Part shown: piece after piece, positions 16,609 to 29,602 of the stretch
Layout: every line of letters starts with the position of its first letter
Numbering within the stretch: the stretch's first letter is position 1
Origin: a virus
Direction: 5' to 3' (one strand)
Length of the DNA: 64,000 bases
IMG/VR virus record: IMGVR_UViG_3300020152_000019
The notes under the pieces: generated by a model
The model's input: only the letters and a program-made list of their open reading frames with translations
Told to the model about the DNA's origin: nothing
Database searches by the model: none
Program-made: the position numbers and the translations under genes

Positions 16609-18171
16609 ATGAGTATTAATGAACCTAATGAAGAAAAAGTAACTGAGCACACACTACCGGTAGGGGAGGTGTCTAATGAAAACAATAAAAACGAACAAGT
16701 CGATGCGCAGGAAGTTACAGCGTATCCAGACCCAGCGAATGCTAAACCAGAACAAACCGTTCGATCCAGCAACGCTATTCAGACTGATGAATATTCCAAT
16801 AACACCTTCAAGCTTGGAAATTATTCTATATCTCTGCCTTCTCTTGGTCTTTTTGATTTTAATGCTAAGCTCAGGCGCTTTAACAATTCCAATCTAGAAG
16901 ATAAGATGGAAAGCCTTGAAGACTGGAAAGAATTGACCGAACAATCGATCAATTATTACACTGTCGGTGGTTTGTATCAAGATCGCTTTATCGATGAGAA
17001 GTCCCAGTTTAAACAAGGTATCGAGACGAAAGATGGGGATTTAAATACCATCTCGACGTTGAAGTTTAAGAAGACGGAAGGTGAACTTAAAGGCGAGATC
17101 GCTCTCCTTAAAGTTTCCAAGATGCTGGGTCTAGGAGATGTGATCAACGTTCCGCTACCGCACTCCGGTATTTGGGTAACGATTAAACCTCCTACTGAAA
17201 AAGATCTGATTGATTTTTATAACAGCATTTTCCGTGAAAAGATTATGTTGGGCAGAGCGACCTTTGGTCTTACTCTGACAAATTTCTCAGTACACATCAA
17301 TAACCGTTTGTTTGATTTTATTATCAAGCATATCCATAGCGTTAACTTCGGTGATATTCCTAAGGAAGAGTTAAAGAATTATGTACTCATCCATGACTTC
17401 CCGATTTTAGCATGGGGGTTTGCATGTACGATGTATCCGAATGGTTTCGAATACCAACGTGCTTGTGTAGACGACATTGAAGCGTGTTCTTACATTGCTA
17501 AAGCCACCCTGAATTTGACCAAACTTCTGTGGGTAGATAATTTCTCTCTGACTGACGCACAGAAAATCATTCTGGAAGAATTCAGACCGAATAAGCTTTC
17601 TATTGAAAACTATCGTAAATTCATTAGTGAACATACTCGGGTCACTAGTTCTACGTTCACCACGAAGAATGGTATTAAGTTCAAGCTTAAGATTCCGACC
17701 TTTAATGAGTATACCACGGATGGTCTTGCATGGATTAGTAGTATTAATTCTGCCATTGAAAATCTGATTCTTGCGGAATCTGATCAAGATCAAGCAGATG
17801 ACGCTAAGACGGAAATGCTCAATCAGTATGTAAAGACTTCGATTCTGCGTCAGTTTAATCACTTCGTCGATTACATTGAAGTAGAAGACAATGTCATTAC
17901 TGATCGCGCAACGATTAATCAAGTGCTCGAAGTGTTCTCGTCAGAAGACGATATTCGTGGAGAGATTACTGAAAATATCTTAAAGTTCAAAGCGAAGACC
18001 ACCATTGGTTTGATTGGTATTCCTGAATATAAATGCCCGAATTGTGGTAAGTCCCAGAACCCGACGCCGACGAACGATCACTTCGTTAACGTTATTCCTC
18101 TGGACGCGATGAACCTTTTTTTTACGCTAATAACTTTAAGAATTTCGAAGATCCTAGAGAGGGAAGTGTAA
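16609..18171 (+). CDS. putative tail/baseplate assembly chaperone (G-like product)
   Basis: 520 aa, C-terminal CPNCG, ends just after a T8 slippery run. Confidence 0.55.
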   Translation: MSINEPNEEKVTEHTLPVGEVSNENNKNEQVDAQEVTAYPDPANAKPEQTVRSSNAIQTDEYSNNTFKLGNYSISLPSLGLFDFNAKLRRFNNSNLEDKMESLEDWKELTEQSINYYTVGGLYQDRFIDEKSQFKQGIETKDGDLNTISTLKFKKTEGELKGEIALLKVSKMLGLGDVINVPLPHSGIWVTIKPPTEKDLIDFYNSIFREKIMLGRATFGLTLTNFSVHINNRLFDFIIKHIHSVNFGDIPKEELKNYVLIHDFPILAWGFACTMYPNGFEYQRACVDDIEACSYIAKATLNLTKLLWVDNFSLTDAQKIILEEFRPNKLSIENYRKFISEHTRVTSSTFTTKNGIKFKLKIPTFNEYTTDGLAWISSINSAIENLILAESDQDQADDAKTEMLNQYVKTSILRQFNHFVDYIEVEDNVITDRATINQVLEVFSSEDDIRGEITENILKFKAKTTIGLIGIPEYKCPNCGKSQNPTPTNDHFVNVIPLDAMNLFFTLITLRISKILEREV

Positions 18172-18623
18172 TAGTTGGAGATAAAGAAGTACCGAAACAT
18201 ATCTCTAACTTTCATTTTGGTTATTATATAAACTTTGACGAGTTTATAGAAGAGACCATTCGACATCTTAAAGGTAATAAAGATTATTTCTATAACAAGC
18301 AATTGTTTATAGAAATTTATGAAACCAAGTATCGGATCTGTGATCATCTCAACACAGTCAATCCTCTGTCTTCAGTGCAGTTTAATGAACCAGAAGACTA
18401 CTTTAGTAAAACTCTGTATGACGGATACTTAAATATTTTCATCTATAGAGAACTAGGAAAAAAACTTAATATGTCTTTTGATGATTTTATTAATAGACCT
18501 CGATACGAGATTGAGGCTATGATAAAGGTTGTCGAAGATGTAGATAAGAAAAAGATAAAAATGAATGAGGATATCGCTAAGGACTTAGAAAAAAATGTTC
18601 CTAAACCTCCTCCTACTGAATGA
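18123..18623 (+). CDS. -1 frameshift extension (GT-like); alternatively a TTG-started ORF 18303..18623
   Basis: frame open from 18090 to 18623 with no ATG before about 18470; entered by a -1 slip at T TTT TTT 18117-18123. Confidence 0.55.
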   Translation, partial: YANNFKNFEDPREGSVIVGDKEVPKHISNFHFGYYINFDEFIEETIRHLKGNKDYFYNKQLFIEIYETKYRICDHLNTVNPLSSVQFNEPEDYFSKTLYDGYLNIFIYRELGKKLNMSFDDFINRPRYEIEAMIKVVEDVDKKKIKMNEDIAKDLEKNVPKPPPTE

Positions 18624-18688
18624 TAATAAAGAGACAACCACAGTCTAGTGCTGTGGTTGTTTTCTATCTTTGTAAAGGAAAAAAACAC

Positions 18689-20752
18689 ATGGTACTAAAT
18701 AAACACCATGGCAATATACCTTTCGATGCTATCTATATCGGAAGAGGAAGTAAATGGGGTAATCCGTATGAAATGGGTAAAGACGGTAACCGCGATGAAG
18801 TATGTGATAAATATGATCGGTATTTAGAAGAACAAATAAAAACTGGTAAATTCACATTAGAAGAACTAGCCTCGTTACATAATAAAGATTTAGTATGTTA
18901 TTGTCATCCTAAGAGATGTCATGGACATTCATTAGAAAAAGCCGCGAAATGGGCTTGGAATAAATTAAATAAAGATAAAGAAACATTCTTTTTTCACACA
19001 AAAGTGAATGACGTGAATAAAGAATTGGAGCCTAAAATGTCTAAAGAAATCGTCAAAAAGGAAGTGCGGTTTGCATGGCATCTTCCTAGAAACGACTACA
19101 GGCCAGATCTACATTATGTTCGAGAAGATATTACCTACAAAGATGGTACTCAAGAACCTAATTGTTATTTCGCTGAAGATTTTGAACGTCCGGTGTACGT
19201 AACTAAAGAAAACTTTAGAAATCACTACGATAAAAAAGAGTTTGAATATCGAGATAAACTCAATCGTCAAATGACTACTCAATCGGATATGGAACGAGTA
19301 GTGCGTGGCATGCTTGGTCACAAAGAGAATGAAAGAGTCAAAGGAGAAGTAAAGAACTCTCCTTACGTGTACGCTTATGATGTTACCTCTACCTCTCTTA
19401 TCAAATATACCACGTTAAAGAAGAATGATTTTATTCAATCTCCCTATAGTGTAGCGGCATTCGATATTGAAACAAATCCCGATACCCAAGAAATTCTTTT
19501 GTCGACGGTCGCGTTTAAGAATAAAGTGCATACTTCTATTCTTAGAAAGTTTGTCAAGAATATCGCAGACGTAGAAGGTAGAATCAGAAAAGCAATTGCG
19601 CATTATCTGCCGGACTACGTAGGATTAGAATATAGCTTTGGTGTGTATGATTCTGAAGTCGATCTGTTAAAGGATAACTTTAGAGTCATTAATAAATGGA
19701 AGCCTGCGTTCTTAGCTATTTGGAACATGGATTTCGATATTCCCAAGATCTTAGAACGACTGAAGCATTATAACGTGAATCCGACCGATGTGTTATGCGA
19801 TCAAGCGATCCCAAGACCTTATCGGATGTGTCGTTATAAACAAGGTCAGAAGAAGAAGGTTACTGCGTCAGGGGTGGTAAAACCTATTAACCCCAGTCTG
19901 CAATGGCATACTTTAATTGTGACGGCTCCTTACTATGTAATTGATGCGATGTGTGTATATCGCCAGTTACGTATGGCAGGACAAGAAGAAACGAGTTATG
20001 CTCTTGATGCGATTCTAAAGAAAGAAGGCATTGGTGGTAAGTTAAAGTTTGAACCAGCCAATGGTTATTCTGGAATCAAATGGCACTTATTCTTACAAGA
20101 GAATTACCCGATTGAATATATCGTATATAATATCTACGACTGCTTAGGAATGCTAGAGTTAGATAAGAAGATTAAAGATCTTTCTTCTACTCTGCCTTCG
20201 TTTGCGGGTATTACTGATTTCCAGAAGTTTAGTAGTCAAGTACGGAAGATCTCTGACGCTGTGTTTCTGTTTGGTTTGGAAAAGAACCGTATCATTGGTA
20301 CAGTTCCCAAGATTGAAAAAACAGAAGAAGAACTGGTTGATGTACCTGACGAAGTATTAGACAATAATGGTGACGATGAAGAAGAAGACACTGAAGATAA
20401 ACCTAATAAATATAAGACATTAGATCTTAAAGGGTGGATTCAATTACTTCCTCAGAATCTATTATTACATGAAGGTCTACAGTGTTTAGAAGAATATCCC
20501 AACGCTGTGACTAATCTTAGAGGTTTAACTTGCGATCTGGATGCTACTTCTTCTTATCCGTCTTGCACTCTCGTTGGTAATGTATCGAAAGAGACGTGTG
20601 TAAACGAATTGATTCGTATCGATGGAATTGATGAAGAAACATTTAGAGAACAAAACCTAAGTATTTGTTTAGGCAATGCTAACATATTGGAATATTTCAG
20701 CGTGATGTTTGGGATGCCGAGTATGTCAGAAATAGATGCGTATTTAGATTAG
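18689..20752 (+). CDS. DUF4326 domain fused to the split family-B DNA polymerase exonuclease subunit
   Basis: IYIGRGSKWGNPY...LVCYCHPKRCHG; ExoI FDIET, ExoII WNMDFD, ExoIII YNIYD; PolB motif A DLDATSSYPS; internal GGAG-ATG at 19037. Confidence 0.8.
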   Translation: MVLNKHHGNIPFDAIYIGRGSKWGNPYEMGKDGNRDEVCDKYDRYLEEQIKTGKFTLEELASLHNKDLVCYCHPKRCHGHSLEKAAKWAWNKLNKDKETFFFHTKVNDVNKELEPKMSKEIVKKEVRFAWHLPRNDYRPDLHYVREDITYKDGTQEPNCYFAEDFERPVYVTKENFRNHYDKKEFEYRDKLNRQMTTQSDMERVVRGMLGHKENERVKGEVKNSPYVYAYDVTSTSLIKYTTLKKNDFIQSPYSVAAFDIETNPDTQEILLSTVAFKNKVHTSILRKFVKNIADVEGRIRKAIAHYLPDYVGLEYSFGVYDSEVDLLKDNFRVINKWKPAFLAIWNMDFDIPKILERLKHYNVNPTDVLCDQAIPRPYRMCRYKQGQKKKVTASGVVKPINPSLQWHTLIVTAPYYVIDAMCVYRQLRMAGQEETSYALDAILKKEGIGGKLKFEPANGYSGIKWHLFLQENYPIEYIVYNIYDCLGMLELDKKIKDLSSTLPSFAGITDFQKFSSQVRKISDAVFLFGLEKNRIIGTVPKIEKTEEELVDVPDEVLDNNGDDEEEDTEDKPNKYKTLDLKGWIQLLPQNLLLHEGLQCLEEYPNAVTNLRGLTCDLDATSSYPSCTLVGNVSKETCVNELIRIDGIDEETFREQNLSICLGNANILEYFSVMFGMPSMSEIDAYLD

Positions 20753-26725: not shown

Positions 26726-29602
26726 TTAAGTTAACATGAATGATACCGATACGTCTTCTTTCAGGTTGTACCCATCAGCCTCGGTAATAAGAAGCTTATT
26801 CAAACTCACTCTAGCATTTGCATCCAGAATGTTTATATATTCTTCATTAAGTTCAGTAAACTCGTCAATACTAACACTGTTGACAAACTCTTTTAATTTA
26901 TTAAATAAGACGTTTAACAGTTCAGTCTTACTTAACGAAGTCGTGTTGTACAAATAAGTATCAATTTCATCTACAATCGTATAAACAATACTGTCACGAG
27001 TTTCAATGTCATTGTAAACACGTTCATTCACAAATACATTCACTCTAAACTTTTGCATCGAATTAATATATGTCGTCTTAGTCGGTGTCTTGACTTTGAT
27101 CTGACTGATATTCTTCGGAACCACTACAAAAGCTTCCGTATTCTCTAACAATTGGTTTTGAACGACATTCGCATTCTCGACGATCTGTTCCGTCAAATAC
27201 GTTTTGACATATGCTCTATAATCTTTAATGATCGTCTTATTGCTGATCGTTGCTTTATAATCGATAAATAATAGATTAATATAACGATTTAATTCAAGTT
27301 CATTCACTGGAATGGGTTTACCATGTTCATCTAACTTAATGTCACCTTTACGATGTACGTAAACGATTTCATTTTGACCATTGTAAACAATATCGTTAAC
27401 CTGGTGCACGATTTCATTCTGTGCATTATAGACTGTATTTTTATATCTTAAAGGAACGTCTTCTTGATGTATTTCATATTCATAAATACCAGTGCTGGTA
27501 TGCACCTGAGTAAACAGTCGTTCTAGATAATCGCCAAACTTGACTTTGATTTCTTCTAACGTAACTACTGCTCGACCAACAGCTAAATAGCTGTTATAGA
27601 TATAGTTATCCAAATCAGAAGCAATGTAATTGCCAGGCACGATATTACTAATATAGATGATCTCTAAATTACTATTGAGATCAAGACTAATGTTAGCAAC
27701 ATTGTCATTGACATCTTTAAAGTTACTGACACTGATCCGATTGTTCGCATCAATGTAGTAATTACTGTTCAATTCAAACCGATAAACAGGATTATCATTA
27801 ATCGTTGTAAACAGTCTACCTTCAAGATAGAAAGCACTATCGTCGTTATCACGATACACGATGTAAGGCTTCACATTCGTTTCATTAATCGTGTTCACAT
27901 ATTTCTTTAAGTTCGCAAGAATATCAATGACGAACCCATTCGGAGTCTTAACGATATTCGTGTTGCTGGTATTAATACCTACTTTTGCAGTAGGATTGAA
28001 TTCTTTAAAGTTAATTTGTTTAATGACAGGTTTACTGATGTCATAGGCACGTAAATTAGTTTCATCATCAGTAGTATCGAGTACATAATGATAGAATACC
28101 GACAGATACTTATTATTGTTAACAGCAGTTGTTAAATCAATGTCTGATAAACTGATAAGCTGCGTATGCTCTGTTTTATCCAGAATCCGCAGTCCGTCTT
28201 CCGTCATCTTGAAGATAGTATTTTCAGGAATGATCGTAACGTGATCATTGATAGCAATTACGCCATTTGTATTTAAACGCAAGTGACTCACTGTCGTTTT
28301 GTATTCCATGATATCTAAGTTGAACTTAGTAATCGGATAACGAGTCGTCGCGTTAGGAATACCGCATTCTAATAAGAACATGCGTTTAGTGACAACGTCA
28401 ATATCTTTAATCAACTTAAAGTTATTTTGACCACTGGAGAAAGCAATCTGCTTGCTTGTAATCGGTAGTTTACGATCGCCGATACTGTTTTCAATAACGT
28501 TATTCTTCAATTCAATAAAAGGCATTTTACCTTTACCAGCAATCACTTCATCTTTAATATAGATAACTTTAGAGATAAGTTGCAATGGCTCGGTATATTG
28601 ATCTAATTCTTCTTCTTGGAACACTGGGTTGTATTCCACACTGAAGTCGCTGATCTTGTAATCATTGAAGTTAACATTGATTTCACCGTTTGTGGTATAA
28701 ATCAAGAACTTGACTTTTGTACCAATCTTTCCACTGTTAACGTAAACAGGAGGAATGTAGTATTCTAAGCTATTGCTTTCTTGTAAAACCTTAATGATAC
28801 AAGTAGGCTTATAAATATCATACACTTGATCGGTATGAGTAACTAACATTTCATTCCACTTACTGTCTTTAAAGTAGAATGCTCTAAAATAATAAAACTG
28901 TCGATTGGGATTATATGTGATATTGTTTTTAAACAGTTTAGATTTCTCTACAGGAATCTCTACTGTCTCAATATCAATTTCTGGTAACTTCAATTCAAAG
29001 TTCAAATACGTTTCGTTTTGATTGAGCTTATAGATGTTGAAGTTAATGTAGTTAGTTTGGATCGGAAACAAGTTATTGAAATCTTGATTCTCGAACTTTA
29101 CGTCAATAACACCATTTTCGGTTAAACGAATAATGATCGCGCTAGTTAGAGTAAAGATGTACTTATCAACAGAAAGTTTGAAATGCCTAGGTAACTTAAG
29201 AACATATTCTTTCTGAATAGGATCGTAAGTGGCTTTACTAGTAAAGTCATTAAACAGAATATTAAACAATACGTTTGCATGTGCTGGTTCAGAGAAACGA
29301 CCCAGATAGTCTTCATCCGACATATGAAGATACAAGTCTTCTTCTTGGTTAGCTAAGCGAGGATACAGCTTTCTCGTTAACAGTGTATACTCTTGCACAG
29401 CAAAAGCGGTGTTTAAGCAATTGGTTTCTAATAGATAAGTAAACGGATTCGAAGGATCGGTAATTTCTACCTTACCAGCTAACATATCTTGTAATCTGTT
29501 TAAAGATACATTTAAAATACCGTTAGGATGATATTTGTATAGAGCTAGCTTATCTAACTCATCCTGTATGTTAAGATTTACACTAGGGGTGATATTGGGC
29601 AC
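26726..29602 (-). CDS. large virion structural protein (baseplate wedge-like)
   Basis: 958 aa; lies at the start of the phiKZ-like structural block; function inferred. Confidence 0.55.
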   Translation of the reverse strand: MPNITPSVNLNIQDELDKLALYKYHPNGILNVSLNRLQDMLAGKVEITDPSNPFTYLLETNCLNTAFAVQEYTLLTRKLYPRLANQEEDLYLHMSDEDYLGRFSEPAHANVLFNILFNDFTSKATYDPIQKEYVLKLPRHFKLSVDKYIFTLTSAIIIRLTENGVIDVKFENQDFNNLFPIQTNYINFNIYKLNQNETYLNFELKLPEIDIETVEIPVEKSKLFKNNITYNPNRQFYYFRAFYFKDSKWNEMLVTHTDQVYDIYKPTCIIKVLQESNSLEYYIPPVYVNSGKIGTKVKFLIYTTNGEINVNFNDYKISDFSVEYNPVFQEEELDQYTEPLQLISKVIYIKDEVIAGKGKMPFIELKNNVIENSIGDRKLPITSKQIAFSSGQNNFKLIKDIDVVTKRMFLLECGIPNATTRYPITKFNLDIMEYKTTVSHLRLNTNGVIAINDHVTIIPENTIFKMTEDGLRILDKTEHTQLISLSDIDLTTAVNNNKYLSVFYHYVLDTTDDETNLRAYDISKPVIKQINFKEFNPTAKVGINTSNTNIVKTPNGFVIDILANLKKYVNTINETNVKPYIVYRDNDDSAFYLEGRLFTTINDNPVYRFELNSNYYIDANNRISVSNFKDVNDNVANISLDLNSNLEIIYISNIVPGNYIASDLDNYIYNSYLAVGRAVVTLEEIKVKFGDYLERLFTQVHTSTGIYEYEIHQEDVPLRYKNTVYNAQNEIVHQVNDIVYNGQNEIVYVHRKGDIKLDEHGKPIPVNELELNRYINLLFIDYKATISNKTIIKDYRAYVKTYLTEQIVENANVVQNQLLENTEAFVVVPKNISQIKVKTPTKTTYINSMQKFRVNVFVNERVYNDIETRDSIVYTIVDEIDTYLYNTTSLSKTELLNVLFNKLKEFVNSVSIDEFTELNEEYINILDANARVSLNKLLITEADGYNLKEDVSVSFMLT

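Follow-up and report, generated by a model that had tools for sequence, protein, structure and literature searches.

Does a gene that ends shortly behind a run of eight T's make one protein or two? The question is raised by a locus in a 64,000-nucleotide (nt) stretch of DNA from IMG/VR virus record IMGVR_UViG_3300020152_000019 (the whole stretch is hereafter the window), the source of which is an uncultured phiKZ-like giant phage. The gene concerned (hereafter the hub gene) encodes a protein of 520 amino acids (aa) that resembles the proteins of gp26-type baseplate hub assembly, and an earlier note, made from the letters of the window, had proposed that a −1 slip on U_UUU_UUU near its end extends this product to ~670 aa. 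Comparison of the locus with its relatives supports the proposal, with both the heptamer and the overlapping open frame being kept in them. Recoding at the site appears quite likely from the sequences compared, and it is probably a programmed −1 ribosomal frameshift, which would yield a gp26-like hub assembly protein in two forms, one short and one long.

The run in the window comprises 8 T's (18116-18123), and the 0-frame codons around it read GAC GCG ATG AAC CTT TTT TTT ACG CTA, with a slippery heptamer lying in phase within the run (Table 1). Behind the second TTT, the hub gene continues for 15 sense codons and a TAA, its product ending on DAMNLFFTLITLRISKILEREV. The −1 frame stays open over 18090-18623 (its translation includes FFYANNFKNFEDPREGSVIVGDKEVPKHISNFHFG) and offers its first TTG at 18303, 60 codons past the slip site, and its first ATG at 18471 (codon 116 past the site). 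A slip on the heptamer would thus join 505 residues of the hub protein to 166 residues from the −1 frame, giving a 671-aa product in which NLFF runs directly into YANNFK. The run, its CTT TTT TTT codons, the extent of the −1 frame and the missing ATG had all been read correctly in the earlier note.

We compared 38 non-redundant loci, comprising the window, the Bacillus phage AgentSmith, 20 IMG/VR contigs (26-66% identity), and 16 cultured phages (phiKZ, PhiPA3, DT01, PS119XW, Pseudomonas D6, Goslar, RSL2, RAY, Kwan, SPFM17, pVa-21, BONAISHI, Yong MS32, 2050HW, KpLz-2_45, and Aeromonas D6), the cultured set including SPN3US-like phages. In 33 of the 38 loci, the conserved FF motif carries an in-phase T_TTT_TTN (X_XXY_YYZ). 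The codon leading into the heptamer in these 33 loci is CTT, GTT, ATT, GCT, TCT, AGT, ACT, TAT, or GGT; that is, the residue before FF is any of eight different amino acids while the third base is always T, and the G+C content of the genomes ranges over 25-59%. No stop interrupts the −1 frame from the slip site through the end of the hub gene in any of the 38 loci, and the extension encoded in this frame measures 150-178 aa in all 37 complete loci, despite a 0-frame tail that varies from 9 to 37 codons and is itself conserved (in the remaining locus, L008, the extension stops at the contig end after 48 aa; L numbers are our locus labels). Across about 20 divergent lineages, slip site, phase, and open frame are thus all conserved.

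The extension is also conserved as a protein upstream of any start codon. It is homologous throughout to the −1 open reading frames (ORFs) of all relatives (alignment A3), and its H..FG motif is conserved upstream of the first TTG or ATG of the window. Across the loci, the first in-frame ATG, GTG, or TTG falls anywhere from codon 12 to codon 151 past the slip site, the extreme being L014, where the first start-type codon is codon 151 of 154. In 30 of 37 loci, there is none of these codons between the site and H..FG, the first conserved motif, and in the 2050HW and KpLz phages, this motif lies inside the overlap. Most relatives, in other words, have the slippery site and no independent start, which is not the outcome that the earlier note had named as refuting. 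The same frame relation is found in the orthologous pairs PHIKZ077/PHIKZ076.4, Goslar_00081/00082, PhiPA3 gp074/073, and AgentSmith gp11/gp12, with phiKZ, Goslar, and AgentSmith phages sharing the in-phase heptamer of the window and PhiPA3 phage carrying G_TTT_TTT.

Given the amino acid sequences and codon usage of the 38 loci, 6.5 heptamers were expected against the 33 seen (z = 12), and the other xFF tripeptides in the same loci carry a canonical heptamer in about 13% of cases. In the window alone, given the amino acid sequence and local codon usage, the probability of the heptamer was 0.13 and that of an open −1 overlap 0.17. Under synonymous resampling, 15.5 open −1 overlaps were expected across the loci against 38 seen, while the +1 frame, taken as a control, behaved as expected (10.8 expected against 15 seen). 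As a correction for kinship, the loci were grouped into 20 clusters by extension identity (35% or more), with the most favourable member of each used for the null; the heptamer was then present in 18 of the 20 clusters against 3.9 expected, with 0 of 500,000 simulations reaching 18, and the product of the open-frame probabilities over the 20 clusters was 10^-8.6.

Table 1. Coordinates in the window of the hub gene, its slip site and extension, and the hairpin that follows.
Feature	Coordinates	Strand	Description
0-frame gene, short form	16609..18171	+	520-aa protein; phiKZ gp77 family (phrog_4585); gp26-type baseplate-hub assembly-like
Slippery heptamer T_TTT_TTT	18117..18123	+	X_XXY_YYZ phase of the 0 frame; inside the T8 run; encodes the FF motif F504-F505
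−1 frame extension	18123..18623	+	166 codons and TGA; without usable start codon; helical domain with long C-terminal helix
Dual-coding overlap	18124..18171	+	0 frame, tail of the C-terminal helix (TLITLRISKILEREV, then stop); −1 frame, start of the extension
Intrinsic terminator-like hairpin and T tail	18631..18673	+	14-pair stem (18631-18663), then T-rich tail; directly after the extension stop

Taken together with the frames of the window, the conserved site suggests how the two products would arise. Most ribosomes would pass F504-F505 in the 0 frame and complete the C-terminal helix over the next 15 codons, which gives the short form, while a minority would slip back by one base, with two tRNA-Phe on the UUU UUU of the heptamer, and take TAC (Tyr) as their next codon, now in the −1 frame. 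These would add the helical domain of 166 aa, which in the long form would replace the last 15 residues of the short form, and the terminator at 18631 would end the transcript. Given that it is the in-phase heptamer that is conserved, not a minimum run length, tandem slippage of the ribosome is the most economical reading, and we infer that the shift is ribosomal rather than transcriptional. It would presumably be of low efficiency, as no stimulatory RNA structure was found. The two forms may cooperate, in a defined proportion, as chaperones that assist the assembly of the baseplate hub or tail without being structural parts of it.

The short form is likely a real product as well, since the 0-frame tail is modeled with confidence as a helix and its match to the PHROG profile extends nearly to the last profile position. 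In the AlphaFold2 (AF2) model of the 520-aa protein (predicted template modelling score, pTM, 0.78), the last helix spans residues 500-519, with the slip site inside it. The extension was modeled with a predicted local distance difference test (pLDDT) score of 75.7, again as a helical structure ending in a long helix.

Several points weigh against the frameshift or against the function we attach to it. The perfect heptamer is not universal, because of a clade of four loci and the pVa-21 phage, which has CTT TTT ACG. The four loci (PhiPA3, PS119XW, Pseudomonas D6, and L026), which form one clade with phiKZ, have N_TTT_TTY with N being G or A (L030:2499-2505, L038:2196-2202, L042:2319-2325, and L026:3017-3023, respectively). 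No conserved stimulatory RNA structure was found downstream of the site, with only some relatives having a hairpin. Most of the T run follows from encoding FF at all, which confines the free evidence to position three of the codon before FF and to the use of TTT, and the statistics are corrected for shared ancestry only roughly. Finally, the chaperone function is drawn from a weak similarity to PF12322, discussed below.

In regard to the RNA structure, folding of the sequence after the slip site against shuffles (80 nt in the window) gave z-scores of +0.95 for the window, −0.08 for phiKZ, and −2.4 for L004; a hairpin follows the site in L003 and L004 and is missing from phiKZ and L020. This lack of a conserved stimulator fits a low-efficiency, unstimulated shift such as that of lambda G/GT. 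In regard to the imperfect heptamers, the four loci of the clade have a TTG or ATG 18-25 codons past the site, and they may shift less efficiently or partly use separate initiation, i.e., the clade may have moved partway towards the latter. This is only suggestive, as most of the TTGs encode a Leu conserved in the clade.

We did note a further irregularity in the Xanthomonas phage RTH11 (L027:1640-1870; OQ790161, about 26790-27016), which has T7 where its close relatives (L021 and L022) have T8. Due to this T7, the deposited coding sequence (CDS) of the hub gene leaves the conserved frame and continues in the third frame. The missing T probably reflects a polymorphism of the slip site or an error in the homopolymer.

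The same fused protein would be made if the phage or host RNA polymerase added one U on the T6-T8 run, though we consider such transcriptional slippage rather unlikely. It would accommodate the homopolymeric runs of 7-8 found in 28 of the 38 loci, the failure to find a ribosomal stimulator, and the one-T difference within the run of the deposited RTH11 genome. However, five loci have only six T's (T_TTT_TTC), which would be short for polymerase slippage, and what appears to be conserved is the X_XXY_YYZ pattern, including its third-base T, rather than a minimum run length, as would suit a ribosomal shift.

Very unlikely, in our view, is that the downstream ORF is a separate gene, begun at a non-canonical start or by ribosomes that re-initiate behind the stop of the hub gene, with the T run being merely the codons for FF. 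PHROGs and every GenBank record examined do treat it as a separate small gene, with the −1 ORF matching three PHROG families of unknown function (including phrog_12109 and phrog_7580) that are annotated as small separate proteins. T4 phage, moreover, makes gp26 and gp51 from separate genes, and the TTG or ATG codons of the PhiPA3/Pseudomonas D6 clade would suit separate initiation. Yet a separate gene leaves unexplained why the −1 frame stays open from the T run to the hub gene stop in every locus and why the third base before FF is T, and it would have to begin, in the majority of loci, without a start codon ahead of the conserved motif; the starts annotated for it are not conserved. In the window, a Shine-Dalgarno-like GAGAGGGAAG precedes an in-frame ATA at 18171, but this string corresponds to the E-R-E codons of the 0 frame. 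The ATA itself was rejected as a start, as it is not conserved in the nearest relatives (Leu codons in L005, L006, and AgentSmith).

A profile search of 1.84 billion representatives with the extension returned 1643 clusters. The best 150 of these are all 93-186 aa long and begin anywhere from profile position 1 to position 62, and such scattered starts are what gene callers give when the true start is missing. No naturally fused form was present among these best 150 of the 1643 clusters, nor did a word-based search of longer proteins find any, which is weak evidence.

The earlier note had also asked whether the T run might be a sequencing indel, but that a homopolymer error of sequencing or assembly has split one continuous ORF of about 670 aa is hardly credible: a run of eight T's is error-prone and RTH11 shows errors or polymorphisms at this very site, but the two-frame arrangement is kept in 38 independent assemblies, the 0-frame tail is conserved, is modeled as a helix and is covered by the PHROG profile match, which reaches position 544 of 551, and no fused form came up among the best 150 of the 1643 clusters or in the word-based search above. 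These assemblies come from different sequencing platforms, with the phiKZ genome reportedly sequenced by Sanger methods. For the window in particular, an artefact is unlikely because five independent metagenome contigs (L004, L005, L006, L008, and L009) share its T8 and its frame relations.

What the two products do is less readily read from the locus. The 520-aa protein matches phrog_4585 (E 1.5e-94; residues 83-518 against profile positions 86-544 of 551), and PHIKZ077 is its phiKZ ortholog. Using tblastn, it found 232 phage records, those listed being jumbo phages, mostly of the phiKZ type, with AgentSmith phage the closest among the matches listed (54% identity). A megablast search of the window region against phage records found no match, i.e., only protein-level searches worked. 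Against Pfam, the protein reached PF12322 (T4_baseplate, the gp26/gp51 family) with 17.9 bits and an E value of 0.0027, below the gathering cut-off of 24.5, and four of 21 relatives matched this family at E values up to 0.01 (best, 1.2e-5). A role as a hub-assembly protein of the phiKZ gp77 family, distantly related to T4 gp26, is therefore plausible, though the similarity is weak. The fold searches were uninformative, so that function cannot be read from the folds of either part: Foldseek searches against the PDB gave no match for the 520-aa protein with E up to 0.001 and none for the extension, a VIA wide fold search of the extension returned only generic helices (Z <5), and a Pfam scan of the extension gave no match at E values up to 0.1.

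The earlier note had likened the locus both to the lambda G/GT tail chaperones and to T4 gp26/gp51. For lambda-like and P2-like phages, programmed frameshifting in the genes of tail assembly is textbook knowledge, and the lambda gpG/gpGT pair, with the conserved −1 frameshift in the tail assembly chaperones of long-tailed phages, is said to have been described by Levin, Hendrix and Casjens in 1993 and by Xu, Hendrix and Duda in 2004 (the latter also listed in PMC9024508). The lambda parallel holds in its logic, as both systems would comprise a short and a long tail-morphogenesis protein with a common N-terminal body, arising by −1 slippage at a heptamer close to the 3′ end that has no obligatory RNA stimulator and is conserved while the sequences diverge. 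It does not extend to the sequences or to the gene order. The hub gene forms (520 and 671 aa) are far larger than those of lambda G/GT (about 140 and 280 aa), the heptamers differ (U_UUU_UUN against G_GGA_AAG in lambda), and Pfam and PHROGs scans of both parts of the hub gene found no tail-assembly-chaperone family. Unlike lambda G/GT, moreover, the hub gene does not lie upstream of a tape-measure gene; it is followed by a terminator and then by a DNA polymerase subunit gene.

The T4 parallel survives, weakly, for gp26. Besides the PF12322 matches given above, T4 gp26 and the window protein share a C-terminal CPxCG zinc-ribbon-like motif and an FF near the end, which align: T4 gp26 ends on KCPECGKTHAHVIRGLKEFFELL (CPECG...EFFELL, then stop), and its counterpart in the window reads KCPNCGKSQ...NLFFTLI. 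The window protein has an additional N-terminal part of ~300 aa. In profile comparisons using hhalign, the hub-family alignment (A5) scored a Prob of 2.7 against the gp26 family (A6), though with CPxCG and FF aligned, and 34 against the gp51 family (A7). The extension alignment (A3) showed no detectable similarity at the level of sequence to T4 gp51 (Prob 0.6) or to the gp51 family (Prob 0.2). Overall, the similarity of the hub gene to T4 gp26/gp51 is plausible but weak.

T4 phage also serves as a natural control, as the FF of its gp26 is encoded by TTC TTT after GAG, with no slippery site and no extension, and gene 25 comes after gene 26. Where the hub gene would make two forms from one gene in two frames, T4 makes a short (gp26) and a long (gp51) member of one family from separate genes, the two being paralogs (E 2e-6). 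We noted that gp51 homologs carry PF12322 and PF28602, and gp26 homologs PF12322 only, making the T4 long form a two-domain paralog of the short form. Tentatively, and with clearly less confidence than we place in the frameshift itself, it is possible that every phiKZ-like (Chimalliviridae-type) jumbo phage and its relatives, with AgentSmith phage among them, use the frameshift for a fixed-ratio pair of hub-assembly chaperones, in which case T4 genes 26 and 51 would be the derived state, with the frameshift lost.

Downstream of the extension, the gene after the hub region encodes a DUF4326-PolB exonuclease subunit. A long ORF (18620..20752) opens with an ATG that shares bases with the extension's TGA, ahead of the hairpin at 18631-18663; the start of the DUF4326-PolB gene is most likely the ATG at 18689, behind AAGGA.

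The probable conserved −1 frameshift in the gp26-like hub-assembly gene is unannotated in the records examined. None of the 17 annotated GenBank records examined marks a joined CDS at the locus, and the records of the orthologous pairs present two separate genes, the second with a truncated or arbitrary start. The start given to the downstream ORF differs per record, such as for PHIKZ076.4 (L029:2781-3023), AgentSmith gp12 (L001:4635-4868), and RAY gp266 (L033:2412-2960); it is annotated as only 77-80 aa in phiKZ and AgentSmith phages, while the RAY start lies 135 nt inside the hub gene. In the literature on phiKZ-like and jumbo phages, the baseplate hub, and gp26/gp51, represented mostly by titles and abstracts, we found no published report of the shift; the frameshifts mentioned in the Churi and P1 papers are those of mutants or stem from references cited there. 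The text and examined supplements of a preprint on the cryo-electron microscopy of the Goslar virion (10.64898/2026.04.21.720040) mention neither gp81 nor gp82, which fits a non-structural assembly factor. The "gp77" named in those parts of the preprint is a different protein, a capsid decorator (10.64898/2026.04.21.720040).

Phage therapy and research on the phage nucleus now rely on phiKZ-like jumbo phages as major models, and none of the records examined is annotated with such a frameshift. If our reading is true, one gene is mis-annotated in every such genome, with its second ORF called from arbitrary starts, and proteome lists, knockout screens, and structural models lack a protein of 650-720 aa. 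It would make baseplate hub assembly in very large tails accessible to simple tests and would bear on whether a fixed ratio of short to long chaperone is a general rule of tail assembly. Should the frameshift prove universal in phiKZ-like phages, these contractile-tailed giants would possess a non-homologous counterpart of lambda G/GT of their own.

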